DNA of 64,000 nt, taken from positions 145,255 to 209,254 of the forward strand of contig DATDRP010000006.1 in NCBI GenBank assembly GCA_035291665.1, given 5' to 3'. This document shows, in pieces, positions 655 to 59,825 of the stretch; positions within the stretch are counted from its first letter, which is position 1, and each line of letters starts with the position of its first letter. The translations under genes were made by a program, and so were the position numbers. The stretch comes from Patescibacteria group bacterium (GTDB lineage: Bacteria > Patescibacteriota > Microgenomatia > UBA8517). The notes beneath the pieces were generated by a model. The model saw nothing but the letters and a program-made list of their open reading frames with translations, made no database searches and was not told where the DNA came from.

Positions 655-699
655 AATATCAGTACAAAGAGAATAGTGAAAAGAAATAAGCAATAAAAA

Positions 700-840
700 T
701 AGGCAATAAGTTGTGGGATGTGAGTAGTGGGAATTGAGTCTTAAGTATTAAGTTTTAAGTAGTTAGTATTGATATATTCCTAATAACTTAATATCGAGTC
801 TCTTATATCCTGCAATCACTTTTTACCATATCCTTGACAT
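700..840 (-). repeat. CT-rich modular intergenic repeat, inverted copy (purine-rich on + strand)
   Basis: gtgggatgtgagtagtggga at ~725-744 is the exact reverse complement of tcccactactcacatcccac at ~53107-53126. It is followed by a ttaagt/attaag-rich segment related to the ttccttaattcctatattcctaat modules elsewhere. Confidence 0.5.
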
Positions 841-874
841 TTTTTATTTAATGTATTATCTTTTTGCTCAAGGT

Positions 875-1153
875 ATGACAAAAAAGGATCTTGTTGAAAT
901 CGTTGCACGGAAAGCCCACATGACTTCGAAAGCTGCTGAAGAAGCAATTGATGTATTTCTTGATGAAATCGGAAGATCACTTGGTAAAGGTGTAAAAAGA
1001 GTTGTGCTATCCGGTTTTGGAGTATTTAGGGTAACTTGGATGCAGGGGAAAACGGTTAAGATCCCAAACTCTGAAAAAACAGTATCAATAAAAAGACACC
1101 GGCTTCCACGATTTACTCCGGGCAGCAGGTTTAAAAAACAAGTCCAAAGATAG
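875..1153 (+). CDS. hup: HU/IHF-family nucleoid DNA-binding protein
   Basis: MTKKDLVEIVARKAHMTSKAAEEAIDVFLDEIGRSL...GFGVFRV...RxxRxP is a typical HU fold signature. AAGGT lies 4-5 nt upstream of ATG 875. The track ORF starts at 851, but MTKK is the likely start. Confidence 0.8.
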   Translation: MTKKDLVEIVARKAHMTSKAAEEAIDVFLDEIGRSLGKGVKRVVLSGFGVFRVTWMQGKTVKIPNSEKTVSIKRHRLPRFTPGSRFKKQVQR

Positions 1154-1230
1154 ATAAAAGAGATATTAAGATATTAGGATATTAAGTGACAGGAAGCAGA
1201 CTTCACTAAATACATTTAATTTTGAAATAA

Positions 1231-2196
1231 ATGAACAGTAAACTTCTGGTGATATGCGGAGCTACCGCAACGGGAAAAACTGAACTCGGATTGAAACTGG
1301 CAAAGAAATTTAATGGTGAAATTGTTTCTGCCGATTCGCGGCAGGTGTATAAACATATGGACATTGGTACAGGTAAAGACATACCGGACAACTTCAAGAG
1401 ACAAAAGTCAGAAATAATATTTAACAATAAATATGTGAATTATTTTACCGATGGCATTATTCGGCTATGGGGTTATGATTTGGCGGACACAAAAGAAGAA
1501 TTCAGTATTAGTCAATATGAAAAAGTTGGTCGGATGATTGTCAACGACATCTTCAAAAGGAATAAATTACCGATTATTATCGGCGGGTCGGGACTGTACA
1601 TTAAATCGCTGGTTGATCATATCGATACACTAAACATCCCCCGAAATGAAATATTACGTAAAAAACTTGAACTCATGGAACCTGACGAGCTCTATTTGGT
1701 TTTGGAAGAATTAGCGCCGGGTGTAGCAAGTTCTCTGAACAATTCTGACAAAAAAAACAAAAGAAGATTGATACGGAAGATTGAAATTGCAAAAAGTAAA
1801 TACCCAGTCGAAAAAAAGTTTGAGAATTATAACCCTTTATTTATTGGTCTAAAAGTTGATAAAAATAAATTAAAGAAAAGAATTGAAAAAAGAGTTTCTA
1901 AGAGACTTGAAATAGGATTTACCGAAGAGGTAAACAAACTTAAAAAAGCTGGATTAAGTCTTAAGGATCAATCAATGCAAACACCCGGCTATCGGCAAAT
2001 GCTACTAGGATTAGATATAAAGAGCACTCAGGCTATTTGGGTGAGCGAAGAAATAAAATATTCAAAAAGACAAATGACCTGGTTTTCAAAAGACAAGAGA
2101 ATAAATTGGTTTAATCCGGTTAATAGGGAAGATTCGGAGAAGCTGGTAAATATGTTAATGAAATGGTATAAAGAAATTGATGTACAAAAAAGTTGA
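1231..2196 (+). CDS. miaA: tRNA dimethylallyltransferase
   Basis: N-terminal P-loop ICGATATGKTELGLKLAKKFNGEIVSADSRQVYKHMDIGTGK matches the MiaA signature (xGPTAsGKT...IsaDSmQvYrgmdIgTAK). Confidence 0.85.
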   Translation: MNSKLLVICGATATGKTELGLKLAKKFNGEIVSADSRQVYKHMDIGTGKDIPDNFKRQKSEIIFNNKYVNYFTDGIIRLWGYDLADTKEEFSISQYEKVGRMIVNDIFKRNKLPIIIGGSGLYIKSLVDHIDTLNIPRNEILRKKLELMEPDELYLVLEELAPGVASSLNNSDKKNKRRLIRKIEIAKSKYPVEKKFENYNPLFIGLKVDKNKLKKRIEKRVSKRLEIGFTEEVNKLKKAGLSLKDQSMQTPGYRQMLLGLDIKSTQAIWVSEEIKYSKRQMTWFSKDKRINWFNPVNREDSEKLVNMLMKWYKEIDVQKS

Positions 2197-3163
2197 AATT
2201 TCCCACAAAACTATTATTTTTACTGTCTTATTTATACTCCTTCTGTGGTTTTTGTATTATATGAGGGATATTTTGTTTCAGGTGTTTGTGGCACTGATTA
2301 TATCCGCATCGTTTAACCCTTCCGTAACAAGAATTGTACGATTAAAAATTCCAAGGTCGCTGGCTGTAGTTATTGTTTATTTCATTTTCTTAGGAATTAT
2401 TGGCTTTTCCTTATATATTCTGATCCCTACTTTGATTGATCAAAGTACTAATTTTGTAAAAAATCTACCGGTTTATTTAGCGGGTTTAGGGCTGCCGGAT
2501 GTCGTGCGTGATCGAATTCTTTCGGAACTTCTCTTACAGGTAGGTACTATTCCCAGCCAGATAGCAAAAGCAGTCGTTTCTATTTTTTCGAATGTTCTGA
2601 ACTTTGTCGCAGTTTTAATATTCTCTTTTTATTTTCTGGTTTATCGAAACAAATTAATTAGCAATCTGAGGGAATTTGAGGGGCTGAAAAACAAAAAGAA
2701 TATTATCTACGCGATAGAAAACATTGAACACAAAATTGGAAATTGGGCAAGGGGAGAGCTTGCGTTGATGTTTATTGTCGGAACTGCCACTTATATCGGA
2801 CTTTTAATGATGTCAGTCCCATATGCACTTCCATTGGGAATTTTGGCTGGTCTATTTGAAATGGTTCCTCTCATCGGGCCGTTTATCGCCGGAGCTCCGG
2901 CAGTTTTAATAGGATTTGGTACCTCTCCTGTAACCGGAGTTGCAGTTGCAGCGTTGGCATTTTTGATTCAACAGGTTGAAAATTATTTCTTGGTACCAAA
3001 AATTATGCAGAAATCGGTAGGGCTGAATCCTATTGTCACATTATTAACACTTACTGTCGGTTTCCGACTTTTCGGAATAATAGGGGCACTCATTGCAATT
3101 CCGATTGTTTTAACAATACAGGTTATTGTTGTTGAGTATATATCCTTCAAGGATAAGGAATAG
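2177..3163 (+). CDS. AI-2E family (UPF0118/PerM-like) transporter, multi-pass membrane protein
   Basis: 8 predicted hydrophobic helices. Conserved AI-2E block GNWARGELALMFIVG...LGILAGLFEMVPLIGPFIAGAPAVL. Overlaps the miaA end by 20 nt. Confidence 0.7.
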   Translation: MMYKKVEISHKTIIFTVLFILLLWFLYYMRDILFQVFVALIISASFNPSVTRIVRLKIPRSLAVVIVYFIFLGIIGFSLYILIPTLIDQSTNFVKNLPVYLAGLGLPDVVRDRILSELLLQVGTIPSQIAKAVVSIFSNVLNFVAVLIFSFYFLVYRNKLISNLREFEGLKNKKNIIYAIENIEHKIGNWARGELALMFIVGTATYIGLLMMSVPYALPLGILAGLFEMVPLIGPFIAGAPAVLIGFGTSPVTGVAVAALAFLIQQVENYFLVPKIMQKSVGLNPIVTLLTLTVGFRLFGIIGALIAIPIVLTIQVIVVEYISFKDKE

Positions 3164-3195
3164 GTGTCTTTAAGTATTTATATCCTATATTATTT

Positions 3196-3224
3196 TACTT
3201 CATTTGCTTGGATTTGGTATAATA
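3196..3224 (+). promoter_or_regulatory. Sigma70-type promoter for rnpB: -35 TTACTT, 17-nt spacer, extended -10 TGGTATAAT
   Basis: ttactt(3196-3201)...tggtataat(3216-3224). The predicted TSS at ~3230 coincides with the start of the P1 helix of the RNase P RNA. Confidence 0.5.
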
Positions 3225-3229
3225 TACAT

Positions 3230-3748
3230 GCTTTGGAGAAGGAGTGATCGCCACGTTCAGTTAACATGAACGTGGAGGAAAGTCCAGGCAGCAGTAAGAA
3301 GGGAACGGAGCGTAAGCTCCGACTGGAAGCCAGCTTAGCTGGTGAACAGCTGGTGTCTTTGGTTTGTGAAAATAAACTAAGAACCGAATCTGAATTGACA
3401 GATTTGGAGAGTCACAGAGACGATCCTTCGGTTAAACTTGAGGAATTACGACATTAATCAGCAAGTAACTTTGCGATAGATGACTAATCCTTAGGCACAT
3501 TGAAGGGGTGAAACGCTGATAATCCCACCCGCTGCAACCTCCGACTATCCCACCCTTTTTATTTTTTATAAAGTAAAAAGACAAAGCAGCTTACCTGAAA
3601 TTTATTAGGAATGATAGAAATATCAATTCAATAAAGGCGGGATGAAGCTTGAGGGCAGTCCTGATTAATTCGGGACAACTCCGATTTAATCGGAGTTAGA
3701 CAGATGATCACTTAGAAACAGAACCTGGCTTACTATTCTCCAAAGCCT
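3230..3748 (+). ncRNA. rnpB: RNase P RNA, bacterial type A
   Basis: P1: GCTTTGGAGAA (3230-3240) pairs with TTCTCCAAAGCC (3736-3747). P3 hairpin ccacgttcagttaacatgaacgtgg. P4 5' strand GGAGGAAAGTCCAGGC (~3274-3289) pairs with the P4 3' strand ACAGAACCTGGCTTAC (~3718-3733), including a compensatory A/T change. GGGGTGAAACGCTG resembles the P10/11 GGGTGAAA block; AGACAGATGATCAC resembles the E. coli TAGATGAATGAC block. The 63-aa ORF 3266-3457 inside it is spurious. Confidence 0.75.
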
Positions 3749-3752
3749 TAAG

Positions 3753-3779
3753 AAACCCACAAGTATTTGTGGGTTTTTT
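3753..3779 (+). terminator. Rho-independent terminator after rnpB
   Basis: aaacccac-aagtattt-gtgggttt followed by a T-run. Confidence 0.6.
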
Positions 3780-3843
3780 CATGAATAATGAATAGCAAAG
3801 TTTTCACCGAAGGAGGGGTTTTTACTATTCTCCAAAGCCTTAA

Positions 3844-3870
3844 AAAACCCCGATGGAGTCGGGGTTTTTT
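3844..3870 (+). terminator. Second rho-independent terminator, preceded by a duplicate of the rnpB P1-3' sequence
   Basis: aaaaccccga-tggag-tcggggtttttt. The upstream 19-mer ctattctccaaagccttaa (3826-3844) duplicates 3733-3751. Confidence 0.55.
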
Positions 3871-3900
3871 AGTTGCAAGGAAGGATGTTAAAATTAAGTT

Positions 3901-4095
3901 ATGAATACATTCTTTTTCATGATTTCAATCCTCTGTTTCATGCATGCTTTGAGAGACTATCTTCAAATGAAGGGAATTAACAACTGGTTTACAGAATTCG
4001 GACATATTTGGAAAAAACCGGAATGGGAAAAATATAGTGCAGTATTTTTTTCTATTTTGGGATTGATATTGTTATTTTTCGCAATTAGAAATTAG
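3901..4095 (+). CDS. Hypothetical small membrane protein (2 TM)
   Basis: 64-aa ORF with two hydrophobic segments. No convincing RBS. Confidence 0.3.
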   Translation: MNTFFFMISILCFMHALRDYLQMKGINNWFTEFGHIWKKPEWEKYSAVFFSILGLILLFFAIRN

Positions 4096-4189
4096 ATCAA
4101 TTAGTAATTTTTTAGACTCGTTTATGTAATATAATAAAAACATAGCTTTACCTTTATTTAATATATGAGGTAGAAAGTGGTGCCTGCCT

Positions 4190-5869: not shown

Positions 5870-5877
5870 AAAAGCTT

Positions 5878-7086: not shown

Positions 7087-7136
7087 ACGATTCGGTTCAA
7101 AATTCAATACCCCTCCGAATATATATAAAATTTCTC

Positions 7137-7853: not shown

Positions 7854-7864
7854 CGTTATTGTTC

Positions 7865-9295: not shown

Positions 9296-9345
9296 TTTCT
9301 GGTTTACATTAAGTATAAAATAATTGCAAACGTATAGGATGCTAG

Positions 9346-9957: not shown

Positions 9958-11297
9958 TAAATTGGACTTAGGACAATAGTTTCATTTTTATACCCGTAGA
10001 CATCAACTGTTCCGTTAAAGTTGAAATATCCTGATTTGGTAGCTTCGATTGAATAAATTTTTTTCTGCAGGTCCGAAAAAAAGACTTGACCAAAATCAAT
10101 ATTATCTTCAAGTCCGCTCGAAGCAGTGGCATTGAAAACTGGTGCCGTATTATATAAACGTGCGGAAACTGAGGCGATCTGGTTTTCAGATGGATCTAGA
10201 AAAGTGATTAACACACTGTCGCTTGTATGATCTGTGACTGCAAAATTAACAGTATTTACGGTATCCGCAAGAACTTTTATCGGCAGGAACGGGTTAATAG
10301 CTTCAATGTCTCCGACGGAAGAATCTATTGTGATATGGTAGTTGTCCCACTCCAAATCCGGTAATTGAAAATGACCGGATGCGTCGGTAGCGAATTGTTC
10401 AGTATATTTATAAATCGGTTGATCGCTAGTATCTGTTCCGATAGTTTTTTCTCCCTGTATGGTGAATTCAACATTGCCTAAGGCTCCAAAACCGCTGACT
10501 GCGTCATCATGGGAAAATACATCTAATGTGCTGGTTTTATCAATGGAGAAAGAAATTTCTGTTAGCTGTCCCTGGAGTACGGTAAGATTAGGTTTGTTGG
10601 GATTTTCAACCTCTGTGGGAGAATAAGTCTGTTCTGAACTGTATCCCGATTTCGAAGTTAAGACTTGATAGCAAGGTGTTGTACAAACTGGAGCACCGGG
10701 TAAAATTACCCGACCGTTATCTGCTGTTAAAAGTGTCACATCTATTTGAGGAGTTGTGGTTGTTGCAATAATGTGTACGCTGGCTTGGTTTACAGGCTGA
10801 GCGTCGGAGTTTATAACGATGATGGATAAAGTTCCTCCGGTAACTGTTGATTCAATACCCGATGGCGATATGTCAGTAACCAACCTGATCGGGTTTCTTT
10901 GAGAGGTGATTTGCCCTTCCCATGAGGCATCAATTGTAATTCTTTTGTAATCAGTTGCCAATAAATCTGCCGGTGCTTGCTGGTCGAACGGATCATCAAT
11001 ATAAAGGATTGTTGTTTTAATATAATAATTTGCACCGTTGATATTTATCGTTTCATTCTGAGGAATATTACCCGGGGGAATTCCTCCGATTGTGCCGATA
11101 GAATCATAAGGGAGATTTCTTATCGTCTCCATCTTTTCTTGAGCGAGGTGTTTTGCATTAATACGGGAACTGTTATAGGTACTCACAGAATAAGAAGTTG
11201 TAACAAGAGTAAAAAGCGCCTGAGCAAGAATCGAAAATAAGGCTAACGAAATCAAAACACTTATCAAAACAGATCCTCTACTGACAATAGATTTCAT
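9957..11297 (-). CDS. PilV-like pseudopilin/minor pilin with long C-terminal domain
   Basis: Internal Met 43 of the track ORF gives MKSIVSRG|SVLISVLISLALFSILAQALF, a short basic leader plus hydrophobic helix typical of prepilins (no Glu at +5). The longer form (start 11423) would have a 50-aa leader, which is implausible. Confidence 0.55.
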   Translation of the reverse strand: MKSIVSRGSVLISVLISLALFSILAQALFTLVTTSYSVSTYNSSRINAKHLAQEKMETIRNLPYDSIGTIGGIPPGNIPQNETININGANYYIKTTILYIDDPFDQQAPADLLATDYKRITIDASWEGQITSQRNPIRLVTDISPSGIESTVTGGTLSIIVINSDAQPVNQASVHIIATTTTPQIDVTLLTADNGRVILPGAPVCTTPCYQVLTSKSGYSSEQTYSPTEVENPNKPNLTVLQGQLTEISFSIDKTSTLDVFSHDDAVSGFGALGNVEFTIQGEKTIGTDTSDQPIYKYTEQFATDASGHFQLPDLEWDNYHITIDSSVGDIEAINPFLPIKVLADTVNTVNFAVTDHTSDSVLITFLDPSENQIASVSARLYNTAPVFNATASSGLEDNIDFGQVFFSDLQKKIYSIEATKSGYFNFNGTVDVYGYKNETIVLSPI

Positions 11298-11468
11298 GGG
11301 CAGGTACATTGATATAAAGTATAGCATTTGGCATAATGGTAGAAAGAAGATGCTCAAAACTATTGTTTTGGACGTTTTGGTTTGGTTAGAAAAAATATAA
11401 TTAGGTAGTATGGTTATTTTCAAATTTCTTAATATCTTAGTATCTTAATATCTAATGCAAGTCCTGCC

Positions 11469-12863: not shown

Positions 12864-12869
12864 ATTAAT

Positions 12870-29272: not shown

Positions 29273-29280
29273 AACCCGTA

Positions 29281-29312
29281 AATTACGGGTCTGCCCTTTT
29301 TATAAATATTCA
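29281..29312 (-). terminator. Rho-independent terminator (minus strand) after the small zinc-ribbon gene
   Basis: Reverse complement gggcagacccgtaatttacgggttttgcc followed by TTTT. Confidence 0.4.
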
Positions 29313-29329
29313 AAAATCTAAAGACTTTA

Positions 29330-29464
29330 TTAGCCTCCGATCTTGAACATGGTTGTGCCGCAAACTTCACACTTACCTTTCTTAGCTTTTTTACCATTTT
29401 TCATCGTTACGTCTTCAATATCTTTACCTTCTCTTTTTGCGCGGCACTTTACACAATACATCAT
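29330..29464 (-). CDS. 44-aa zinc-ribbon protein (CxxC...CxxC), DUF5679-like
   Basis: MMYCVKCRAKREGKDIEDVTMKNGKKAKKGKCEVCGTTMFKIGG. A strong GGAGGTGA SD lies 6-13 nt upstream of ATG. Below the 60-aa cutoff of the ORF track. Confidence 0.55.
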   Translation of the reverse strand: MMYCVKCRAKREGKDIEDVTMKNGKKAKKGKCEVCGTTMFKIGG

Positions 29465-29502
29465 TTCGCTCACCTCCTCTCGTAAGGGCAGATCAAAAAC
29501 TG

Positions 29503-32566: not shown

Positions 32567-33901
32567 ATGTTTAAAACTCCTCTTCCTAAAGTGTTGCTGA
32601 TAATATTTCTGACCGTTTTTTCAATATATATTAATCTTCCCGGAAGCTTCACGCTTGATTTAACCCGTTACAAAATAAATTTCAATAAAACGCTTTCGAA
32701 ACCTGATCTAAAAATTGGAAGATTCAATTTGGGGAAAAAGAACGAGCTTATTTTGGGACTCGATCTTCAAGGGGGAAGCCGCTTGGTATTTGAAGCCGAT
32801 ACGGTAAATATAGACAGTTCTGTTTCCGGTGATGCATTGACCGGAACGAAAGATATTATAGAGAAACGGGTAAACCTTTTCGGGGTATCCGAACCCAATG
32901 TTCAGCTTTCCGAATTCGAAGGTAAAAAAAGGATTGTTGTTGAGCTTCCTGGGATAAAAGACATTAAGGAAGCAATAAAAATAATCGGGACTACTGCCCA
33001 GCTTAATTTTGCCGAAGTGAGCGAAGAAGAAGATAAAGGTTTGATTCCGACTGATCTAACCGGAGCGGATCTTGTAAAATCCCAAGTACAATTCGATCAA
33101 AAAACTTCAAAACCGGTTGTCGCCATAGAATTTAATGAAGCGGGCGGCAGTAAGTTTGAAAAATTGACGGAAAAAAATATCGGAAAGCCATTAGTAATCC
33201 TTCTGGATAATAATATTATTTCATATCCCACGGTGCAGGATAAAATTTCGGGCGGATCGGCAGTTATTACCGGAGATTTTACTTTGGACGAGGCAAAAAA
33301 TCTTGCAATTCAGCTTAATGCAGGAGCATTGCCCGTTCCGATCACTTTGGTTGAGCAAAGGACTGTCGGAGCGGCATTAGGTACCGAATCAGTACAAAAA
33401 TCTGTGAATGCGGGAGTAGTCGGCTTAGTTATGGTTATGCTCTTTATGATTCTTTCATATGGACGGATGGGTTTTGTTGCCGATTTAGCGCTCCTCATAT
33501 TCGGAACCATTACACTATCCTTGTATAAATTGATTCCCGTAGTTTTAACTCTTCCGGGAATTGCCGGATTTTTACTTTCGGTTGGTATGGCAGTTGATTC
33601 AAATATTTTGATATTTGAAAGGTTTAAAGAGGAAATAATTAAACGACCTTTTACAGATGCTCTTGAAATATCATTTGGGAAAGCATGGGATTCCATACGT
33701 GACGCCAACATTGCAACCCTGTCAACAGCTTTTATTTTGGCAAATCCTTTTGAATGGAATTTTCTACACACTTCCGGTCCGGTACGCGGTTTTGCTATCA
33801 CACTTGCTTTGGGGATTCTGATCAGTTTATTTACAGGCATTGTCGTTACGAGAAATTTACTAAGGGTTCTGATTCGAAAGAGTGGAAGAGTAAAAGAGTA
33901 G
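32567..33901 (+). CDS. secD: Protein translocase subunit SecD
   Basis: LGLDLQGGSRLVFEAD periplasmic signature and C-terminal 6-TM SecD_SecF domain. Confidence 0.9.
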   Translation: MFKTPLPKVLLIIFLTVFSIYINLPGSFTLDLTRYKINFNKTLSKPDLKIGRFNLGKKNELILGLDLQGGSRLVFEADTVNIDSSVSGDALTGTKDIIEKRVNLFGVSEPNVQLSEFEGKKRIVVELPGIKDIKEAIKIIGTTAQLNFAEVSEEEDKGLIPTDLTGADLVKSQVQFDQKTSKPVVAIEFNEAGGSKFEKLTEKNIGKPLVILLDNNIISYPTVQDKISGGSAVITGDFTLDEAKNLAIQLNAGALPVPITLVEQRTVGAALGTESVQKSVNAGVVGLVMVMLFMILSYGRMGFVADLALLIFGTITLSLYKLIPVVLTLPGIAGFLLSVGMAVDSNILIFERFKEEIIKRPFTDALEISFGKAWDSIRDANIATLSTAFILANPFEWNFLHTSGPVRGFAITLALGILISLFTGIVVTRNLLRVLIRKSGRVKE

Positions 33902-33963
33902 AAGAGCTTGAGTATTTTTTTTACTTATACACTTGAACTCTCCTGCTCTTATACACTAATCAT

Positions 33964-35216: not shown

Positions 35217-36644
35217 TTACTTCAGTTTTAAAAGAGCTTCGATGAGCTCATCCGGGTTATTTTTGATTTCTTTAGCAACAACCAAGTCAAATAGCTTTTT
35301 TAAAGCTTCACCGACTTTGGGTCCGGGTTTGAGATTGAGTTTTTTCATAACGGTAACTCCGTTAATCTTCAGATCAGTAACTTTGAATGGCTGCTTTTGA
35401 ACAAGTTTTATCTTCCGTTTGAAATCCTCCAATCTCCAGGAGGTTTCACTAGCACCACCACCGAGTCTGTCAGCAGTTCTTAACGCGAGCATATCGGAGA
35501 CGTTTTCCAGACCAACGTTAGTAATAAACCTTCTCACCGCAGTATCTGTTTGATTTTCGTTGACGCTAAATTGGTGCCAGCGGACAAGTTTTTCCAGTTT
35601 TTCGGACTGTTTTTTTGAAAGCTTAATCCTTTTTGCCAACTTCTTGGCAATATATGTACTTACAACTTCATGATTGTAGAAAGTTATTATCCCGCTGTTC
35701 AATTTTTTATAGGTTGATACTTTTCCCAAATCATGAATTAGTATTGCCAGTTTTGTCACGGGGTCTTCGGTTGGTGCAAATTTCAATGACATAAGAGAGT
35801 GTGTCCCGACGTCGTACACATGGTGTCTCCGGGGAGATTTTTGCTGGATATCGAATGCTTTTTCAAATTCGGGAATAATCTGTTCCATAAGTTTGGTTTT
35901 TTGAAGTAACATTACTCCTTCGTGTGCGTACGGAGACTTCATAATTTTCAGAAGTTCATCTCTCACCCTCTCAGCTGTGATTTTTCGGATCGAGTCAGAA
36001 AGTTCCTTAATCGCAAATAAGGTGTGCTCTTCAATTTGGAAACGGATTTCAGTTGCAATTCTAACCGCACGCATCATCCGAAGGGAATCTTCAGTAAAAC
36101 GTTCGACCGGATTTCCTACTGCCCTAATGAGTTTATTTTCGAGATCTTTTTGACCATCGTAAAGATCAATTAGAGTAAAAGTGCGGGAGAGTGCAAGAGC
36201 CTGAGCAGTTTTTTTCTTATACTCTTTTACTCTTTTACTCTCCTGCTCTATTTTCAACGCCATTGCGTTAATGGTGAAGTCGCGTCTTTTGAGGTCGTCA
36301 GTAAGTGTTTTTCCCCACAAGACTTTGTCTGGTCTTCGCGAATCGCTATAACCGTGTTCAGTTCTGAAAGTCGTAATTTCGTAAGGTCTTTCTCCTTCAA
36401 TTTCGTTTGGGATGCCGACGGTTCCGAATTTGTTATCGTAATAAGCATTTTCAAAAAGAGTAAGGATTTGTTCGGGTACAGCATTAGTTGTGAAATCCCA
36501 ATCATAGACAATTTTTCCCATTAAAATGTCCCTTATAGCCCCGCCTACAATATAAATTTCAAAATCTTTTTTTTCAAAAGCGGATATAATTTTTGCTACC
36601 TGACCGGGAACATCAACTTTCATATTATTTGTAGTAAGCATCAA
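35217..36644 (-). CDS. cca: CCA-adding tRNA nucleotidyltransferase with HD domain
   Basis: PolyA_pol head domain (IVGGAIRDILMGKIVYDWDFTT; DxD), tRNA-NT body, HD motif (ILIHDLGK). C-terminal extension. Confidence 0.85.
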   Translation of the reverse strand: MMLTTNNMKVDVPGQVAKIISAFEKKDFEIYIVGGAIRDILMGKIVYDWDFTTNAVPEQILTLFENAYYDNKFGTVGIPNEIEGERPYEITTFRTEHGYSDSRRPDKVLWGKTLTDDLKRRDFTINAMALKIEQESKRVKEYKKKTAQALALSRTFTLIDLYDGQKDLENKLIRAVGNPVERFTEDSLRMMRAVRIATEIRFQIEEHTLFAIKELSDSIRKITAERVRDELLKIMKSPYAHEGVMLLQKTKLMEQIIPEFEKAFDIQQKSPRRHHVYDVGTHSLMSLKFAPTEDPVTKLAILIHDLGKVSTYKKLNSGIITFYNHEVVSTYIAKKLAKRIKLSKKQSEKLEKLVRWHQFSVNENQTDTAVRRFITNVGLENVSDMLALRTADRLGGGASETSWRLEDFKRKIKLVQKQPFKVTDLKINGVTVMKKLNLKPGPKVGEALKKLFDLVVAKEIKNNPDELIEALLKLK

Positions 36645-50494: not shown

Positions 50495-50524
50495 GCGACT
50501 TTATTATTAAAAGACTTTTTGTTT

Positions 50525-50800: not shown

Positions 50801-50874
50801 ACCTTCAGATTAACGTTATATATTCTATCATTTTTCTTATATTTCGATACAATATATCTACATTTTTAACTCAT

Positions 50875-51258
50875 ATGCAAACAGGATCTGAACTTTGTAA
50901 AATATGCCCTATTAATGAGAGCTGCAGTTCAGATCTTAACCCTGAAAGTGCAACAAAAAGGAGGCTTGTCATTAATAATCCCTGGAACTGCCGGCATCTG
51001 ACGTGTCCTGCAGGCGTTGAAGAAGCCAAAAAGGAAAAGTCGCGTTTAAGATCTAAAAATATATTTTTTGGTTATGCCTACTTTTCGTCAAAGGACAAAC
51101 CAAGTGTCAGAAGATTTGATATGAAGTTGGGTATTATCGAATCATTTCAGGATGGACAGTGGCATTCAACAGGTCAGTCAATCTATAAAAATTATATTGT
51201 TGATAGAAAAAACTATCCATATAAAAGAATCAGGAATTTCAGTGTGAAGAAAACTTAA
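50875..51258 (+). CDS. Hypothetical Cys-containing protein
   Basis: CKICP...C...C...CRHLTCP: 6 Cys in the first 50 aa. Confidence 0.4.
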   Translation: MQTGSELCKICPINESCSSDLNPESATKRRLVINNPWNCRHLTCPAGVEEAKKEKSRLRSKNIFFGYAYFSSKDKPSVRRFDMKLGIIESFQDGQWHSTGQSIYKNYIVDRKNYPYKRIRNFSVKKT

Positions 51259-51323
51259 AACTAAATACCCACTTCCCACAACTCATTTCCTATTTCTTTC
51301 CCCTTTTCTCTATTAGCTAATTT
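51259..51323 (+). repeat. CT-rich modular intergenic repeat (short copy)
   Basis: aaaacttaaaactaaataCCCACTTCCCACAACTCATTTCCtatttctttccccttttctctattagctaattttt shares its head and tttc(c/g)cttttctctatt modules with copies at 53795 and 59598. Confidence 0.6.
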
Positions 51324-51776
51324 TTAATCCCTGACTTTTGTCTTTTCTATATCTTCTTCGCTCATGCCGAAATGGTGGGCGATTTCGTGAATAACGGTAT
51401 TTTTGATATTAACAACTGCGTTTTCATAACTATTAGAAATCCGAAGAAGGGGAATTTTAAAGATTGTGATCTTATCAGGGAGCGGTCCGCCGATGCCATA
51501 GTTTCTTCTTTTTGTCTGGGGTATTCCTTCATACAAACCAAGAAGTAATCCTCTGCCTTGGTTTCTCCCGACAAGGTTCATTTGCGATACCGTCGGCCAG
51601 TCAGCAATTACAATTGCCACATTTTCCATTTTGTCTTTGAACTCCTGAGGAAGTTCTTTCAGCGCCTGATCGATAATTTTCCCAAACTCCTGATCATCCA
51701 TGAAGGAAATTATATTTAATCCCAAGCTTAACGGCAAGGAAGGTTCATCGCTGAAGACCAATTCGGCGGCTTTCAT
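51324..51776 (-). CDS. Zincin_1-like (DUF1025) putative zinc metallopeptidase
   Basis: C-terminal HEIAHHFGMSEEDI matches the HExxHHFG zinc-binding signature. Confidence 0.6.
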   Translation of the reverse strand: MKAAELVFSDEPSLPLSLGLNIISFMDDQEFGKIIDQALKELPQEFKDKMENVAIVIADWPTVSQMNLVGRNQGRGLLLGLYEGIPQTKRRNYGIGGPLPDKITIFKIPLLRISNSYENAVVNIKNTVIHEIAHHFGMSEEDIEKTKVRD

Positions 51777-51826
51777 AAATTTCCTATATTTGATTCTGCG
51801 AAGGAGGTTGTGGATAATGAAGTATT

Positions 51827-53065
51827 ATGGACGAAGCCGGGGATAACATTACTGGAAGTCATATCTCAAGAAGAGATTTTTTGAATATGGGAGTATTGGG
51901 TTTGGCATCAATTGCTACTGGTAAAAAATTGGTGAATACCATTAATTATCTCGCTGACGCATTAGGTGATAAAGTTGAAGAATCGGGAATTAATAACAAG
52001 CTCCATGAAGTTTTGAAAATTGTTCAGGAAAATTCAAAGATGATTGTTAATTTTTCTGACAAATATGGTATCCCACCGGAAGTTTTGGCGACAGTTGTGT
52101 CTATGGAACATTTGATTATTTTAACCGGTAAAACGAAAAAAGATGGATATGCGATAGGTATTTCGGAATCAGATTCCATAAAAGGATTTACTGATTTAAT
52201 CGAGAAAGAAATTCACCCCGATAAAGCCAATATAGGATTGTGTCAAGTAAATCTTCAGGATGCAATCAATTTTGAAGACCGATTGGTTGGAAAAGATGCG
52301 TTTCCTGATGCGGATAAGCAAAAAAGAGAACAAACGACTTATGAGAGGCTGGAATCTCCTTGGTGGAACATGGTGTATTTTTCAGAAATGCTTAAAAAAG
52401 AGGCCGCTGATACCGGAAAAACTATTACAGACAAACAAGCAGCAACCCAGTTTATCAGAGAAAAATACAATGACGACTCTCATAAGTTAAAAATATTTAA
52501 TGAACTACTGGATGTATATTCAAACTTTTTTCAGGATAAGAAACCGGATGAAAAATTTAAGAGGTGTTCACTCGAAGAAGCGATAAGTGTTTGGAATGAA
52601 TACCCAGAGTATTCACATTTATTCCGAAGTGTTTGGCCTGTTGAATACTTTGTAGTTCATCATACTGCAGGTAAATATCACACTGAGTCGATAATCACAG
52701 CGGAACACATTGCCAAAGGTTTTGGTGACATTGGTTATAACGGAATTATCGGGAATGGCGAACTTACAAGCGACGGTAAATTTTATCCTGGGAGAAGTAC
52801 AAAAAAAGAAGGTGCGCATACTTTGAGCTACAACAAAAAGTCCATCGGTGTTGCTTTGGTCGGGGATTTCAATATAACTGAACCCACAACGCTACAACTG
52901 GATTCATTAAGGAAAGCCATTATTGCCAGTTCTGCAATTTATGAGATTGATCCTTTCAAAGTAGTTGGCCACAGAGAACTAAATGATACGCAGTGTCCGG
53001 GAAATAATTTTACAACTGATAAATTCAAAAGACCGGTAGATGTGGCCGCAGGGAAAATAGTATAG
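51827..53065 (+). CDS. N-acetylmuramoyl-L-alanine amidase (Amidase_2/PGRP domain) with Tat signal and N-terminal domain of unknown function
   Basis: Twin-arginine SRRDFLNMGVLGLASIATG. C-terminal YFVVHHTAG...GYNGIIGNGEL...GAHTLSYNKKSIGVALVGDF...VVGHRELNDTQCPG. N-terminal region has a weak SLT-like E-S...GLCQV. Confidence 0.75.
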   Translation: MDEAGDNITGSHISRRDFLNMGVLGLASIATGKKLVNTINYLADALGDKVEESGINNKLHEVLKIVQENSKMIVNFSDKYGIPPEVLATVVSMEHLIILTGKTKKDGYAIGISESDSIKGFTDLIEKEIHPDKANIGLCQVNLQDAINFEDRLVGKDAFPDADKQKREQTTYERLESPWWNMVYFSEMLKKEAADTGKTITDKQAATQFIREKYNDDSHKLKIFNELLDVYSNFFQDKKPDEKFKRCSLEEAISVWNEYPEYSHLFRSVWPVEYFVVHHTAGKYHTESIITAEHIAKGFGDIGYNGIIGNGELTSDGKFYPGRSTKKEGAHTLSYNKKSIGVALVGDFNITEPTTLQLDSLRKAIIASSAIYEIDPFKVVGHRELNDTQCPGNNFTTDKFKRPVDVAAGKIV

Positions 53066-53200
53066 AAAAACTTAACTCCAAATAACTTAATTTCTATTTT
53101 TCCCTTTCCCACTACTCACATCCCACTTCCCATCACCTACCCCCTACAACCTATCTCCTACCGCTTACAATCCACTTTTTATCTCCATTCATCTATATTT
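53066..53200 (+). repeat. CT-rich modular intergenic repeat
   Basis: aaaaacttaactccaaataacttaatttc...tcccactactcacatcccacttcccatcacctaccccctacaacctatctcctaccgcttacaatccac. Confidence 0.6.
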
Positions 53201-53232
53201 GTAGCTTTCGGATGGCGTACAATACCAGCATT

Positions 53233-53526
53233 ATGCAGGAAAATGAAAAACCATCAATTTGTCAACGGAACTTTATGCTGGATTGCAAGCCCGGCTGTCC
53301 TCTTTATGCTTATTCCAAGAATTCCGTTCAAACTTTGGCGGATCAACACGGAGTGACTTTTGATGAAGCAATAAAAAAGATCCGAAGTATGCGCTTTGAT
53401 CAACAAGTGCAGATTCTGGCTTTAATAAAGGGTGGTTTACAATCCGTAAAAGAGAAGAGGGGGATTGTTTTGGAATGCGATAATGAGAAAAATGGGTTAA
53501 TTTCGGACCATTTTGGTTTCGGATAG
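53233..53526 (+). CDS. Hypothetical small protein (alternative start 53212)
   Basis: 98-104 aa ORF. Its 5' end lies in a 36-nt motif duplicated at the 5' end of the next gene. Confidence 0.4.
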   Translation: MQENEKPSICQRNFMLDCKPGCPLYAYSKNSVQTLADQHGVTFDEAIKKIRSMRFDQQVQILALIKGGLQSVKEKRGIVLECDNEKNGLISDHFGFG

Positions 53527-53543
53527 CGTACAATACCATCATC

Positions 53544-53786
53544 ATGCCGGAAAAGTGGTTTCGAAGGGTAGAAAATTTGGCAATTATTCCAGTAATAGGT
53601 GGTGATTTACCGGGTATGTATAGGGAGTTTCCACCTGAACTTCATGATGCTTTTGAGGAAGGTAAAAAAGCACTGGTTCCCGGTGAACAGTCTTATATAT
53701 CTATGAGGGGTCCTGTAAAGTATGGTGGTTTTGAAAGCAAAGTATTCATCGTTTCGAAGATCACTCTCGTAAAAGTTGCAGGGTGA
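53544..53786 (+). CDS. Hypothetical small protein
   Basis: 80 aa. Faint similarity to the preceding ORF (ILALIKGGL vs LAIIPVIGGDL). Confidence 0.4.
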   Translation: MPEKWFRRVENLAIIPVIGGDLPGMYREFPPELHDAFEEGKKALVPGEQSYISMRGPVKYGGFESKVFIVSKITLVKVAG

Positions 53787-53794
53787 GAAACTAC

Positions 53795-54030
53795 TAAAAA
53801 CTTAAAACTGAATACTAAATACTCACAACTCACTTCCCACATCTCACTTCCCATTTCTTTTCGCTTTTCTCTATTCTCTTAATTCCTTAATTCCTATATT
53901 CCTAATTTCTTATCTTCATTTCCCACAACTCACTTCTCACTACTCATTTCCTACTTCCTACCTCCTACAACCTATAACCATTGCCCCTCTCATTTCTCAC
54001 ATCCCACATCCCATCTCTTACAACCTACCG
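53795..54030 (+). repeat. CT-rich modular intergenic repeat (longest + strand copy)
   Basis: aaaacttaaaactgaatactaaatactcacaactcacttcccacatctcacttcccatttcttttcgcttttctctattctcttaattccttaattcctatattcctaat...cctacaacctataaccatt... Confidence 0.65.
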
Positions 54031-54056
54031 ATCAGTGTTAATATACCAATATAAGT

Positions 54057-55028: not shown

Positions 55029-55134
55029 ACATTAAAAATATACTATAAGAATATTCAGGAAAAGCCATCGAGTCTAATTGGATCTACCTCGACATCCAAG
55101 CTTGACTTGACTCGGGGGGGGATGTCATAGTCAT

Positions 55135-55163
55135 TGACTTATGGGATAGTTTGATGCAATAAT
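55135..55163 (+). promoter_or_regulatory. Candidate sigma70 promoter for the giant gene: TTGACT, 17 nt, TGcAATAAT
   Basis: -35 55135-55140, -10 55158-55163 with upstream TG. The ATG at 55173 lies ~10 nt downstream, implying a very short leader. Confidence 0.3.
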
Positions 55164-55172
55164 CACTTGAGA

Positions 55173-58100
55173 ATGCGGACGTTTTCAAGAAAGCTATCAT
55201 ATCTTCTTTGTTTTACTCTTCTTTTTTACCAACTCTCCCTTTTTTTATTCAACGATGCAAAAACCGCACAAGCAACTACGGCATCATATCAAGTGTCAAC
55301 TTCTACTGATGATGTAAACGAAGACGGCGGGACAATGAATTCAACAAGTACCAGTATTTGGGTGGGAACGGGCGGATCCACAAGCCAAAGTTACACCGGT
55401 TTCCGATTTACCAACGTAAGTATTCCCCAAGGATCAACTATTACATCTGCTTATATAGAGCTTTGGTCTATCCAAGATTCATGGATTGATACCGGTTATC
55501 AAATCGGGGCAGAAAATGTCGGCAATAGTACAACTTTCACAAGTACAACAAAGCCGTCACAACGGGCTCTGACAACCGCCGTGGTCAACTATTCATCAAG
55601 CTCCCATTGGTTAATCAACACTTGGTATCAGGATGCAAACATACCCTCAGTTATTCAGGAAGTTGTTAACCGTACTGATTGGACAAGCGGTAATGCGTTG
55701 TCGATTATTTACAAGGGAACTTCCGCAGCATGGGGTAGAAAGTATGCATCAAGCTATAACGGGAACCCATCCTATGCTCCGCGTTTAGTTGTTGCATTTG
55801 AAGCCGCAACCACGCCTAGTCCGACGCCGCCGCCGACGCCCACTCCCACTGAAACTCCGACTCCTACACCAACAGAAACACCAACTCCTACTCCTACCGA
55901 ATCTCTAACTCCGACTCCCACGGAAATCCCCACTCCCACTCCGACCGAGACGCCAACGCCAATGCCTACCCCAACAGCCTCGGTTACCCCGACACCTCAG
56001 CCACCTTCGGAATGGACGCAGCTCGGACATGACGCACAGCATTCATCGTACACGGAACAATTTGTCCCAACCCCATGGAAGTGGAAATGGTCATGGAACG
56101 GACCCGACGCAGCAGGAAATGTACGTGCGGATAAACTGAATTATCCCGGAAGCAGTGATTTTACAACTCCGGGTATCCCTCGGAATATTCAACCGGTGAC
56201 CGGTGGGGGTAAAGTATATATTGCTGCCGGAAATTTCGGTGTTTACGCCCTTAATGAGGAAGACGTAAATACTGACAGTTTTGCAGATGTTTTGTGGAAC
56301 GTAAATCCGGTTGCTGGTGGTGGAGTTAAGTCAACTCCCGCATACGATAGCGAAACTGGAGCATTATTTGTTCTTGGAACAAATGGCGTTGTTTACAAAT
56401 TGGATACCCTTAACAGCGGGATCGTGATTGGAGAATTTAATACAAATCAAAGTTATGCACCATATACAACAAGTGCTGACCGATACAATCGGGTAGCGTT
56501 GCCGACATCCCCCACACTTTCGGGAAACCGGTTATTTGTATCGATGGGACAGAAAGTTTTTGCACTGGACAAAAACAATCTTAGTAATCTTATATGGGAG
56601 TACGATGCGGGAGCAGAAGTTTATACACCGCCTGCATACTCAACTGTCAGGGATATGGTCTTTGTTGCATCTCAGGATTTGACACCCGGTCCGGATGGAA
56701 AACTTCATATTTATACGCATGCAATATCAAATTCTAATGGACTGGAATTGTGGAAGACTAGCATCACTAATATCACCGGTGTTGAAGCGGGAGACCCCAA
56801 CCCGCCTCCAAATTACACCAGCCAGGTAAGAGCGGAAGTACTTAACGGTTGGCCGGTTATTGCTGAAGAACATGGTCTGGTTTTTATCAAATTAAGACTT
56901 AATTGGAATACGATGTGGACTTGGAGTCCCTGGTCAACGAGCAATGAGACGAACCGGACGAGGCTTCTTTCCAATCCAACACAACAAGCTCTGATTGCTC
57001 TTTCAATGGATAGCGGGAGCCAACCGTTTGTTGTCAATATCGGTCACGGAGGCTATGGAGATGGATTCATCCCGATGGGACCCCAACCGGTTGTAAAGAG
57101 GTTTGCCGATGGGAGTGAAGTTGTCTATACGATGGTAAGGGGAGACAGTCAATCCGGTGTTGACGGTCGTTCGGATACCCACTTTGGGGAGTTGGTTTTG
57201 GATTCAACAACAGCAACCGGATTTGAACCGGGCTATGTCAGATGGATTGAATACGGTAATTATGGTTGGCCGGCAAATTCAAATAATGATACTCCGCCGA
57301 CAGATGAGCAGCCGAATGTATCAATGTCAGGAAACTATCTTTTCGGAGGCCACTGGGCTGTTGGGAATGCGATGGAAATCGTTGATAGGAATGCAAATTT
57401 GGGAGGCTATTCAAACCCCATCACAACAGAACCGATTCCGAATATCGCTTTAATGACAAATTCGTCAACTGTTCCGGAAGGATTTGACTCTTCACACTAT
57501 GTTTCACACAATTTTGGCATGGCAACGAATGGGGAATGGAGGGCGTTGCCTCCCGGATTTTACGTATATTGGAATCAAGGGCATCTTTATGATCAATACT
57601 GGAGCGACTACTCTACCTGGACAGTTAGTAATAATACCGTTTACTATTTGACGAATGATGGTGCACTTGTTGCTTTAGATCACAATAGTGGCAGTCCTAC
57701 ACCTACACCAACACCCAGTCCAACTGCCACGCCTACTCCCACTGAAACTCCGACTCCGATACCGACCGAGATACCAACACCTACGCCAACTGAGATTCCT
57801 ACCCCGACACCGACTGACATTCCGGCTCCGACTCCAACAGAAATACCTACTCCGACACCTACGGATTCTCCCACTCCAACGCCGACTGATACGCCCACTC
57901 CCACGGACACACCCACTCCGACACCTCCGCTAGTGATTAATATGGCTGTCATGAGCGACAGCTCTTCTGATGAGTATCGTGCAGACGACAATCGTGCCGG
58001 AGGAACTCAATGGGAGTTAACAACGCTGGCCTGGACCGAGTTATTGGAAAAATATCGCGGATTTAATTTGGGGTCTTGGGGAACGCGTGGGGAGCCAAGA

Positions 58101-59597
58101 CGGACCGGTTATGAATACAATTGGGCAAGGACAGGTGCCGAAGCAGCAGATGTAGTTTTTGCCGGCCAACATACAGGCGTTGCTTCCCAGGCACAGTCGG
58201 GTTTAGTCAATATTGTTTATTTCCAGATAGGAAACAACGATTTTGCATATTACCGAGACGGTGCAGATATATATAACGGTGCTCTTTCAGGACAGGCTTT
58301 AACCGATAAAATTAATGCAATAATTTCAAATATCTCAACTTCTCTCGATACTGTTTTGGATGCAGATCCAAACGTAAAGGTAATTCTTGGAAATATTGCA
58401 GATCCTGGACTATCACCTTATTGGGCAGCACAATTCCCTGATCCGGTAAAAAGGCAGTTGGTTACCGATGCAATAAACCAAACTAATGCGGGTATAACAA
58501 ACCTGCTTCTTACCCGGAGCAGAGTTACTTTATTTGATCAAATGGCTTTTGCAAACGAGCTTATGTCTAAGGTTGTTAATGGTAATTTGGTGATAGGCGG
58601 AGAAAATATCAGCTTAACTCAAAATGGCGATGAACCCCACCATGCAATTTTGGGAGATAATATCCATGGCGGGACAGTAATGGAAGGCTTAGTTGCCAAC
58701 GGTTTGATTCCTCTGGTAAATCAGACAACCGGATCGCAGATTCAATTATTTTCTGAAACCGAAATTTTGAATAATTCTGGTATCTTTCCCAGTCCGACTC
58801 CGACTCCCACGGTGATTCCTACTCCGACACCTACTCCGGTGTTTGAAACTCACTATATATCGGTAAATCCGGACGGAGTTATCGGAGGGGTAGCTGTTGC
58901 CGGAGAAGATATTCTCAAATTCAATACCGTAACTGGTTTGTATGAAACATACTTCGACGGTTCGGATGTTGAGCTTTCGGGAACATCGATTGATGCGTTT
59001 ACCTTTCTTCCCGGAGGCGACATGATTCTGTCTTTTTCCGGAAGCGTTTCAATAACTGGGTTGGGGACAGTCGCTTCGCAGGACTTGGTCAGGTTTACTC
59101 CGCTTTCGACAGGTAATAGTACAAGCGGATCTTTTAGTTTATATTTTGACGGATCAGATGTTGCCTTAAGCAATTCGTCGGAAAATATAGATTCAGTATC
59201 GGTTTTGGAAAATGGGGATATTCTCTTATCAACAAATGGCAGTATTTCCGTAACCGGAGTTTCAGCAAACGATGAAGATATTATCGAATTTACTCCGACT
59301 TCACTCGGTCCGGCAACTTCGGGAAGCTGGTCACTTTATTTTGATGCATCTGATGTTGGATTATCAAGTACGAGCGAAGATATCGATGCTTTGAGTATCG
59401 CGTCATCGGGAGATTTTTATCTTTCAACAAGCGGCAGCTTCAGTGTTACGGGTGTCTCCGGTCAAAATAATGATGTCTTTATCTTTGATCCGTTAACTTT
59501 GGGAGGGGATTCGTCAGGAACTTTTTCCCAGCCGATTTATTTGGACGGAAGCGCTTTCGGATTATCGGGTTTCAACGTTACGGGATACTACAAATAA
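55173..59597 (+). CDS. Giant secreted multidomain protein: signal peptide, N-terminal domain, PT linker, beta-propeller (PQQ/BamB-like repeats), PT linker, SGNH/GDSL hydrolase, PT linker, 4x ~60-aa C-terminal repeats
   Basis: Signal peptide [24 protein letters not shown]. Three (PTPTPTE)n linkers. WKWSWNG / [13 protein letters not shown] / [14 protein letters not shown] repeats. SGNH blocks (MSDSSSDE; IGNNDF; ..DNIHG). Four repeats of ...SGS(F/W)[11 protein letters not shown]... The track ORF starts at TTG 55167. Confidence 0.8.
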
Positions 59598-59825
59598 CTT
59601 ACAACTCATTTCCCATTTATTTTCCCTTTTCTCTAGTCTCTTAGTTCCTTAATTCCTATATTCCTAATATCCTACCCCCTATCTCTAATAACCAATTATC
59701 AAATTCCAAATACCAAACAATAAATTTCTAATATCTAATTTCCAATAAATTTTCTCTTAGTTCCTTAATTCCTTTATTCCTGATATCCTACCTCCTATAA
59801 CCTGCAACCTATAACCATTATACCC
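59598..59825 (+). repeat. CT-rich modular intergenic repeat with internal duplication
   Basis: acaactcatttcccatttattttcccttttctctagtctcttagttccttaattcctatattcctaatatcctaccccctatctc...ttttctcttagttccttaattcctttattcctgatatcctacctcctataacctgcaacctataaccatt. Confidence 0.65.

Follow-up and report, generated by a model that had tools for sequence, protein, structure and literature searches.

Heptanucleotide repeats and the G-free element

The long simple sequence repeats of prokaryotes include the STRR heptamers of heterocystous cyanobacteria, whose units are CCCCAGT, TTGGTCA, and CAACAGT. According to the summary of Mrazek et al. 2007 given in PMC4679880, heptanucleotides outnumber every other class of prokaryotic long simple sequence repeats (units of 5–11 nt), and polymerase slippage is their proposed origin. 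Here, a family of degenerate heptamer arrays is described from a groundwater member of the Patescibacteria (Candidate Phyla Radiation, CPR). The analyzed DNA, hereafter the window, is a 64,000-nt stretch (positions 145,255–209,254 of contig DATDRP010000006.1, assembly GCA_035291665.1), an ordinary chromosomal stretch of ~38% GC. Five of its intergenic spacers carry homologous, collinear, and diverged copies of one element, 80–250 nt in length, in which one strand is nearly free of G.

Through its heptamer periodicity the element belongs to the known class of bacterial heptanucleotide simple sequence repeats, and it is best filed as a degenerate, G-free, mosaic-copied variant within that class. 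As in the prokaryotic long simple repeats outlined in that summary, the 7-nt units are arranged head to tail, mostly in non-coding DNA and at many loci per genome; adjoining sub-arrays consist of related units with point changes, the spread is sporadic and lineage-specific, and slippage is the proposed origin. Unlike the repeats as outlined there, the window units are strongly degenerate (68–93% matches over 2–5 units) rather than near-perfect, the whole 80–250 nt mosaic, including a conserved core that is not periodic, is copied from spacer to spacer, G is missing from one strand over the full length, and the host is a CPR genome. Identity with the cyanobacterial STRR proper was rejected: the units are CYCAYWW, CCTAYWW, and TTCCTWWW, and the host is a patescibacterium, Woesebacteria-like by its MltG homologues.

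The TAACTGA repeats of marine Beggiatoaceae, Cyanobacteria, and Bacteroidetes (MacGregor 2015, PMC4679880) are likewise intergenic heptamer arrays that prefer one strand with respect to genes, and they are suspected to act as RNA, by way of a single-strand-binding protein. The TAACTGA arrays are perfect, consist of a single G-containing unit in 2–6 copies, and lie mostly just upstream of start codons (PMC4679880), whereas the window arrays lie directly past stop codons, mix several units, and contain no G. The GGGNATC repeats of Xanthomonas and Nostoc (Rehm et al. 2015, PMC4692102) resemble the element in lying often <50 bp from a stop codon; they are enriched between co-directional genes, under-represented between divergent genes, and transcribed. 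After stop codons their G-rich strand is the sense strand and four units (G-quadruplex, G4) are preferred, whereas in the window the C-rich strand is sense and the G3 tracts are irregular. Multicopy elements of four to five tandem heptanucleotides with a proposed regulatory role are known from Geobacter metallireducens (PMC2700814), but their units are GC-rich (GGACCGG) or MTYCTGA, and they are ~30 nt long and lie both within and between genes.

Outside the heptamer class, REP/BIME share with the element a dispersed intergenic position after stop codons and a possible effect on transcript ends. REP/BIME are enterobacterial imperfect palindromes, hairpin-forming and mobilized by RAYT transposases, and BIMEs have been reported to cause Rho-dependent attenuation. 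The window elements, in contrast, cannot form hairpins. Rho targets and their loading (rut) sites are similar to the element in being richer in C than in G, T-rich, at least 60–150 nt long, unstructured, and untranslated past a stop codon (PMC12360218; PMC13323073), whereas known rut sites form no repeat family and have no 7-nt register.

Five collinear copies of a degenerate heptamer array

A strand-asymmetric, lineage-specific family of dispersed intergenic repeats with at least eight copies had been proposed from the letters of the window (hereafter the original prediction). Its modules do recur beyond chance in the window, far above shuffled controls: a 19-mer of the head matched five times against 0.15 expected, a 15-mer of the CACWTCCCAC module 10 times against 0.33, and a 26-nt heptamer pattern five times against 0.00. 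A 74-nt stretch is 89% identical between 53839–53912 and 59601–59674. Leave-one-out searches with nhmmer, using a profile model made from the copies, recovered four of the five copies (E 1e-4 to 3.5e-10) and gave no other match in the window (128 kb search space). The demonstrable copies thus number five rather than eight or more, and they are listed here together with two short arrays.

655–790, minus strand: inverted copy between the stop codon of the RNase Y gene (654) and the HU promoter (834–862); the G-poor strand is the minus strand.
51247–51325, plus strand: short copy, filling the entire 65-nt spacer of the convergent genes 50875–51258 (plus) and 51324–51776 (minus).
53061–53200, plus strand: divergent copy, starting directly after the TAG stop codon of the amidase gene (51827–53065).
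53787–54034, plus strand: longest copy, starting one base past the TGA stop codon of an 80-aa open reading frame (ORF; 53544–53786).
59584–59825, plus strand: copy overlapping the TAA stop codon of the gene for a 1476-aa surface protein (55167–59597) and ending at the stop codon of a convergent vanW-like gene (59826).
1161–1186, minus strand: short 8-mer array, (TAATATCT)x3.2 on the G-free strand, just past the HU stop codon, found with Tandem Repeats Finder (TRF).
11423–11453, plus strand: short 8-mer array, (AATATCTT)x3.9, found with TRF in the 45 nt that separate the start codons of two divergent genes.

The two short arrays, originally counted as copies, are only 3–4 units of an AT-rich octamer and are counted outside the five-member family. 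Neither matches the core model, and 1161–1186 resembles the octamer sub-module only. The inverted copy matches the core model at 745–656 on the minus strand (E 5.6e-14, with this copy in the training set) and is recovered with E 1e-4 when left out. The short copy also matches the core model (leave-one-out E 9e-9) and contains the exact head, which overlaps the TAA stop codon of 50875–51258, and its far end abuts the stop codon of 51324–51776. The longest copy and the copy at 59584–59825 are recovered with E 3.5e-10 and 5e-10. In the longest copy, the head motif begins 10 nt past the TGA stop codon, and the end lies 22 nt before the start of mltG/yceG (54057), with TGtTAATAT following. The divergent copy is too diverged to be recovered by leave-one-out nhmmer; its homology is based on an exact 21-mer shared with 713–733, the collinear order, and the periodicity. 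The inverted perfect match between these two copies had been described as a 20-mer at 725–744. It exists, but it is 21 nt long and joins 713–733 with 53106–53126.

Aligned with MAFFT on the G-free strand, the five copies are collinear, with deletions and duplications, and do not show the shuffling of modules that had been suggested. The order starts with the head AAAACTTAAAACTRAATAC, followed by CACTTCCCAC/CAACTCAYTTCCYAT units, and continues with TTTCxCTTTTCTCTAKTCTCTTA, TTCCTTAA-type octamers, and the tail CCTACMTCCTAYAACCTATAACCATT / CCTACAACCTATAACC. As predicted, the copy at 59584–59825 carries the tail part twice, by an internal duplication of the TTCCTTAA / CCTAC..AACC part. Identity between copies is 49–75%; outside the core, alignments of this three-letter, low-complexity sequence are imprecise.

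The heptamer periodicity is absent from the original prediction. Every copy is a degenerate head-to-tail tandem array of 7-nt units, and TRF reports the periods 7 and 14 in all five. Lag-7 identity is 0.54 in the inverted copy, 0.55 in the short copy, 0.49 in the divergent copy, 0.61 in the longest copy, and 0.52 in the copy at 59584–59825 (range 0.49–0.61), and lag-14 identity is 0.43–0.56. The lag-7 background is 0.28 in the other 4.3 kb of spacers in the window and 0.23–0.30 in the spacers of relatives. The units are CYCAYWW and CCTAYWW, plus a block of TTCCTWWW octamers. Sub-arrays are short (2–5 units, 68–100% matches by TRF) and adjacent units differ at ~45% of positions; the copies are degenerate mosaics, not clean microsatellites. 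In the longest copy, TRF tiles 53793–54013 with adjacent arrays of periods 7, 14, 7, 8, 7, 7, and 7. All five copies are intergenic, which gives five loci in 64 kb.

This anatomy, together with an origin by slippage and copying, is proposed with good confidence. The arrays would grow by replication slippage of heptanucleotide units, and whole segments would then be copied among nearby spacers. A stretch of 8.6 kb holds four of the five copies, all of them in direct orientation. Descent from the Thr-Pro repeats encoded in the giant surface protein gene was rejected, as their period is 6/24 nt, not 7.

Two other sets of repeats were recognized in the window. The 1476-aa ORF (55167–59597) contains Thr-Pro-rich coding repeats of 24/48-nt periodicity at 55788–55987 and 57681–57928, with a C-minus-G excess comparable to that of the intergenic elements, but poor in T. 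A separate 8-mer array family (AAGAGTAG / TCTTTTAC) lies at 33878–33906 and 36215–36249 in inverted orientation; it is unrelated to the G-free family and partly coding, with one member at the 3′ end of secD and the other inside the ORF of a CCA-adding enzyme.

The original prediction also considered a REP/MITE-like element and triplex (H-DNA) formation. A mobile element of this kind is extremely improbable, and so is a structural role of the DNA itself (H-DNA triplex, G-quadruplex, or i-motif). The copies are dispersed and one is inverted, the divergent copy has five C3+ tracts within 50 nt, and GGGNATC-type heptamers form quadruplexes in Xanthomonas and Nostoc (PMC4692102). However, the elements contain neither palindromes nor local inverted repeats, and the minimum free energy (MFE) of the G-free strand as RNA is 0 to −2.2 kcal per 100 nt (0.0 in the short and −0.3 in the longest copy), compared with −10 to −29 for most other spacers, so that REP/BIME were rejected. 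The ends, head AAAACTTAAAACT and tail AACCTATAACCATT, differ and are not complementary, leaving no terminal inverted repeat; duplicated flanks are not visible in the alignment, and a G-free sequence cannot form G:C arms, so that MITEs were rejected. As originally stated, no transposase or integrase was seen among the ~30 window proteins scanned.

The structural candidates fared similarly. A G-quadruplex heptamer was rejected, as at least four C3 tracts are found only in 53061–53200, with loops up to 11 nt, while the other copies have 2–3; four close G3/C3 tracts are seen in one copy only. The strand described as almost pure pyrimidine is G-free instead, with 63–74% pyrimidine and 25–31% A. Since it carries 26–37% purines, its pyrimidine runs reach at most 9–19 nt with interspersed A, and it lacks a long homopurine/homopyrimidine mirror repeat, H-DNA was rejected as well. 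The i-motif was likewise discarded on grounds of structure and composition.

G exclusion and occurrence outside the window

On a crude gene map of the window, four spacers are outliers against ~45 others. On the plus strand, C is 0.29–0.35 and G 0.02–0.03 in 51259–51323 (0.32 and 0.02), 53066–53211 (0.35 and 0.03), 53787–54056 (0.33 and 0.03), and 59598–59825 (0.29 and 0.02), while C and G are both ~0.1–0.2 in the other spacers (C ~8–20%). G-free runs of up to 119 nt are confined to these four spacers. Their mirror, C-free on the plus strand, is at 705–778 in the inverted copy, as two C-free runs at 705–739 and 741–778. Over the five copies, G is 0.7–6% (0.7–2.2% in four copies and 5.9% in the inverted copy) and C is 21–36% (31% pooled); the pooled composition is A229 C251 G20 T312.

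The four plus-strand copies are the top C-minus-G windows of the 64 kb (45–56 per 150 nt, 4–5 standard deviations above the mean, 36–43% T), with the highest excess in the longest copy; elsewhere in the window, nothing but the Thr-Pro repeats encoded by the giant surface protein gene comes close. They have 23–25 YC dinucleotides per 100 nt, versus 10–12 across the window, and only 0–1 start codons, because ATG, GTG, and TTG all need G. Another spacer, 29273–29502, is C-rich at first sight and was rejected, as a small minus-strand gene with a ribosome-binding site and a terminator lies inside. This gene, at 29323–29457, encodes 44 aa, is Cys-rich and zinc-ribbon-like, and has both a ribosome-binding site (GGAGGTGA) and a hairpin terminator; the spacer appears empty at a 60-aa ORF cut-off.

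Differences between adjacent units are C<->T in 137 cases and A<->G in 11, and those between copies are 172 and 18. Because G stays low and C stays at ~31% despite the divergence of units and copies, the composition points to one strand being constrained, or to mutation with a strong strand bias, rather than to simple neutral decay.

The main rival of a functional explanation is a neutral simple repeat, that is, slippage arrays copied locally wherever a spacer tolerates them and G-free through their founder unit and strand-biased mutation. In the literature, as summarized in PMC4679880, heptamers are rated the most abundant long simple repeat class and are attributed to polymerase slippage. 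G-free heptamer arrays of any unit order are common: in viral contigs, the heptamer pattern of the window was found at 58 loci, versus 94 and 82 loci for two controls with permuted base order. CYCACWW was thus rejected as a specially conserved heptamer, permuted G-free heptamers being equally or more frequent; the widespread feature is heptanucleotide repetition as such. A degenerate four-heptamer pattern was found at 120 or more metagenome loci from many unrelated organisms of 34–71% GC. Among the matches listed, clean arrays of (CTCACTA)n, (CCCACTT)n, or (CTCACAA)n predominate, G-free degenerate mosaics of 140–650 nt that resemble those of the window are also present, and none is from the source samples or represents a further copy from this genome. 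A depletion of the metagenome arrays in divergent spacers was present in one version of ORF calling and gone in the other, and it is not used as evidence.

The 21-mer TTCCTTAATTCCTWTATTCCT was found at nine loci in genome contigs, including those of Prevotella, Saprospiraceae, Bacillota, Clostridium, and a metagenome-assembled genome (MAG) of Gottesmanbacteria, in a scan whose representatives evidently exclude the window's own genome. None of the nine is a true relative, and most are independent octamer arrays in unrelated phyla. At the Gottesmanbacteria locus, the two inspected G-poor stretches, including the TTCCTTAATTCCTWTATTCCT match, lie inside minus-strand ORFs. Motifs recurring across phyla in this way are therefore not lineage markers themselves. 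In Prevotellaceae MAGs (L005, L009, L010, and L011), TTCCTTAATTCCTATATTCCTTAG occurs many times, beside CGGCCGTTAGGCCG hairpins or as an inverted pair forming a long hairpin, and makes up a dispersed family of Prevotella distinct from the one in the window.

The family itself is lineage-specific, as originally suggested. The core model matches in the window and has no match in five 14–21 kb loci of relatives (MltG 65–73% identical), and long G-free C-rich segments (86–251 nt) are likewise restricted to the window in this comparison. The closest named homologues of its MltG are from Candidatus Woesebacteria and Microgenomates (64–69% identity). In the most syntenic relative (L136), the MltG-VanW spacer contains neither the giant gene nor the element. 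An unrelated array of 7/14-nt periodicity (GTATTATGAATTAT...) lies in this spacer at 10975–11088, with the plus strand being C-poor, which suggests that heptamer arrays emerge repeatedly in this lineage. At a Woesebacteria relative (L138 5227–5278 / L139 5219–5278), a poly-C tract followed by (CT)n lies beside a bAvd and reverse transcriptase pair resembling a diversity-generating retroelement.

The MltG/YceG of the window is identical to a protein on a JGI contig of sample 3300002503, whose record prefix C687J we take to be that of the Rifle aquifer series. Across 59598–59825, contigs from three samples do not differ, one of them being from an independent ENA assembly, and a search for unit-number polymorphism across samples found none, all contigs being identical within the elements. 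Sequence beyond the window was gained for 2.1 kb on the left and not on the right. Between the ENA contig (L376) and 60559–60643 of the window there are 6 mismatches, all from G in the window to another base and all close to the end of the ENA contig; they look like an assembly or sequencing artefact, not true variation.

The absence of the family from the relatives' loci, the unrelated array at the orthologous MltG-VanW spacer, the single inverted copy, and the lack of a consistent gene orientation among arrays elsewhere all fit a neutral by-product. Units and copies are, on the other hand, 25–50% diverged, yet G is 0.7–2% in four copies and C ~31% in a genome of 38% GC, with C<->T differences ~10-fold over A<->G; neutral decay should erode both the G exclusion and the C-richness. 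A repeat without function is considered possible, though rather unlikely.

Placement after stop codons and a possible role at transcript ends

The four plus-strand copies begin 0–10 nt past the stop codon of a same-strand gene. The predicted placement of six of eight copies after stop codons holds for these four; the inverted copy and the array at 1161–1186 abut stop codons only in antisense, and 11423–11453 lies between start codons. No hairpin terminator was found after any of the four genes upstream of the plus-strand copies. In the window, hairpin terminators are present at only 2 of 67 gene ends under a strict rule, and many convergent gene pairs are separated by 0–35 nt; genuine hairpin terminators and GGAGGTGA-type ribosome-binding sites do occur in the source genome. 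Coding sense strands are purine-rich on either DNA strand (54.4% for plus genes and 52.6% for minus genes).

The genes of the window are housekeeping genes: RNase Y, HU, miaA, type IV pilus genes, secD, relA/spoT, recJ, an aspS/asnS-type synthetase, amidase, mltG, and vanW. Promoter-like −10 boxes directly follow two copies. The divergent copy ends ~5–17 nt ahead of a promoter-like repeat with a −10-like box (TACAAT) and a small ORF. This is a 38-nt direct repeat, TTTCGGATRGCGTACAATACCAKCATYATGC, at 53206–53243 and 53517–53554 (89% identical), with the TACAAT box ~10 nt before the ATG of two consecutive small ORFs; the motif is found nowhere else in the window, and it may be a promoter for leaderless or near-leaderless mRNAs.

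Scans of the whole window for tRNA and tmRNA and against Rfam 15 at the gathering score gave no match. An assignment of the elements as small RNA genes, one of the original suggestions, is at odds with the missing Rfam match and with the four sense copies starting at the stop codon, where a separate promoter would not fit; no minus-strand promoter was seen in the single flank scanned, around the inverted copy. A related possibility is a regulatory RNA derived from the 3′ untranslated region, or an anti-Shine-Dalgarno mimic, in which UCACUUCC and ACCUCCU would pair with GGAGGUGA-type ribosome-binding sites. The source genome uses a ribosome-binding site of the GGAGGTGA type, and the commonest units, CACTTCC and ACCTCCT, are complementary to GGAGGTGA if G:U is allowed. 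Exact CCTCC occurs, however, only twice in ~800 nt, and neither an Rfam match, a conserved structure, nor a terminator hairpin defines a stable RNA; this role is very unlikely. Apart from the elements, the 443-nt spacer 3458–3900 is strongly structured (−29 kcal per 100 nt) and has no Rfam match. It contains tandem 49-nt repeats at 3730–3778 and 3822–3870, each closing with a strong GC hairpin and a T-run, which may be an unannotated small RNA or a duplicated terminator.

Among the functions originally proposed, a termination or mRNA-tail module is the one that best fits the properties of the elements, although it would be of the Rho type rather than the hairpin type. The explanation preferred here, tentatively and with somewhat less than even confidence, is a slippage-born heptamer mosaic that may be kept G-free as a Rho-type terminator/insulator after stop codons. 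Selection would keep G off one strand. In four of the five copies, the G-free strand would be transcribed as an untranslated tail right after the upstream stop codon. The tail RNA would be richer in C than in G, pyrimidine-rich, 65–250 nt in length, single-stranded, and free of ribosomes, as expected of a Rho loading site, and the element would act as a factor-dependent terminator/insulator separating transcription units. Hairpin terminators are few in this genome, and its coding strands are purine-rich.

Described rut sites are C>G-biased and weakly structured, extend over 60–90 nt, and prefer A and C (PMC12360218). In Bacillus subtilis, Rho targets are defined by two features, long C>G stretches and T-richness, which suffice for termination (Dierksheide et al. 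2026, PMC13323073), and purine-rich coding on both replication strands, 54% and 53% in this species, has been tied to Rho avoidance (PMC13323073). The values for the window genes are close to these and give an indirect hint that the genome may encode Rho. Against a requirement for C>G over at least 60–90 nt, the elements have C 0.29–0.35 and G 0.02–0.03 across 65–250 nt, and they have little secondary structure. Four copies would correspond to untranslated sense RNA past a gene; the fifth copy and the array at 1161–1186 are antisense. A function in Rho loading specifically is plausible, though rather less likely than not.

Several observations weigh against this explanation. The core model finds nothing in the relatives' loci. 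The shared orientation is 4 of 5, and the chance of at least 4 of 5 copies sharing the strand of the upstream gene is 6/32; moreover, the four sense copies are neighbours and probably local direct duplicates, not independent. The inverted copy and the array at 1161–1186 would yield purine-rich sense RNA, and at most ends of transcription units in the window, hairpins and elements are both missing. The footprint of Rho is ~12–13 nt per subunit, and the 7-nt period is not explained by Rho. The rho gene was not found among the ~30 window proteins scanned with Pfam or, by tblastn with an approximate E. coli Rho query, in the fetched loci, and a literature search found no paper on Rho in CPR bacteria. 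In the metagenome arrays, the C-rich strand is antisense to co-directional genes in 31–36 cases and sense in 16–25 by crude ORF calls; there is no universal strand rule for G-free heptamer arrays.

The 7-nt period would be accounted for by a landing pad for a single-strand-binding protein whose footprint is ~7 nt; candidates are cold-shock-domain proteins, ribosomal protein S1, and RRM-type proteins. Such a protein would coat the RNA, rich in C, U, and A, or single-stranded DNA, and would tune stability, translation, or termination for the genes on either side. The CYCAY/CCTAY core keeps a strict 7-nt register with two or three variable bases, and a G-free unstructured strand keeps the sites accessible. 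An RRM_1 protein is encoded in the locus of one relative, and S1, Csp, and CsrA were proposed for the TAACTGA heptamer repeats of Beggiatoaceae (PMC4679880). No candidate protein was identified in the window, however, the orientation is inconsistent, and permuted heptamers are equally common elsewhere, with no sign of a conserved recognition motif. Such a landing pad is regarded as quite unlikely.

The terminator/insulator explanation can be extended to portable, self-duplicating cassettes, in which a simple-repeat family would supply Rho loading sites or 7-nt-footprint protein pads for newly inserted genes in a CPR genome largely without hairpin terminators. In that case, the selection against G would directly reflect this function. 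This extension is unlikely.

If the function fails, the element would be an ordinary fast-evolving simple-repeat spacer, useful mainly as a strain marker, and it would serve as a caution that low-complexity intergenic motifs, such as TTCCTTAATTCCTWTATTCCT, recur across phyla by convergence. If the terminator/insulator explanation is true, this would be, to our knowledge, the first dispersed repeat family with the role of a factor-dependent terminator in a bacterium of the Candidate Phyla Radiation. It would give a concrete function to at least a subset of the long-unexplained heptanucleotide repeats of bacteria, and the combination of G-free, C-rich sequence and a 7-nt register would provide a signature for annotating transcript ends in uncultured genomes.

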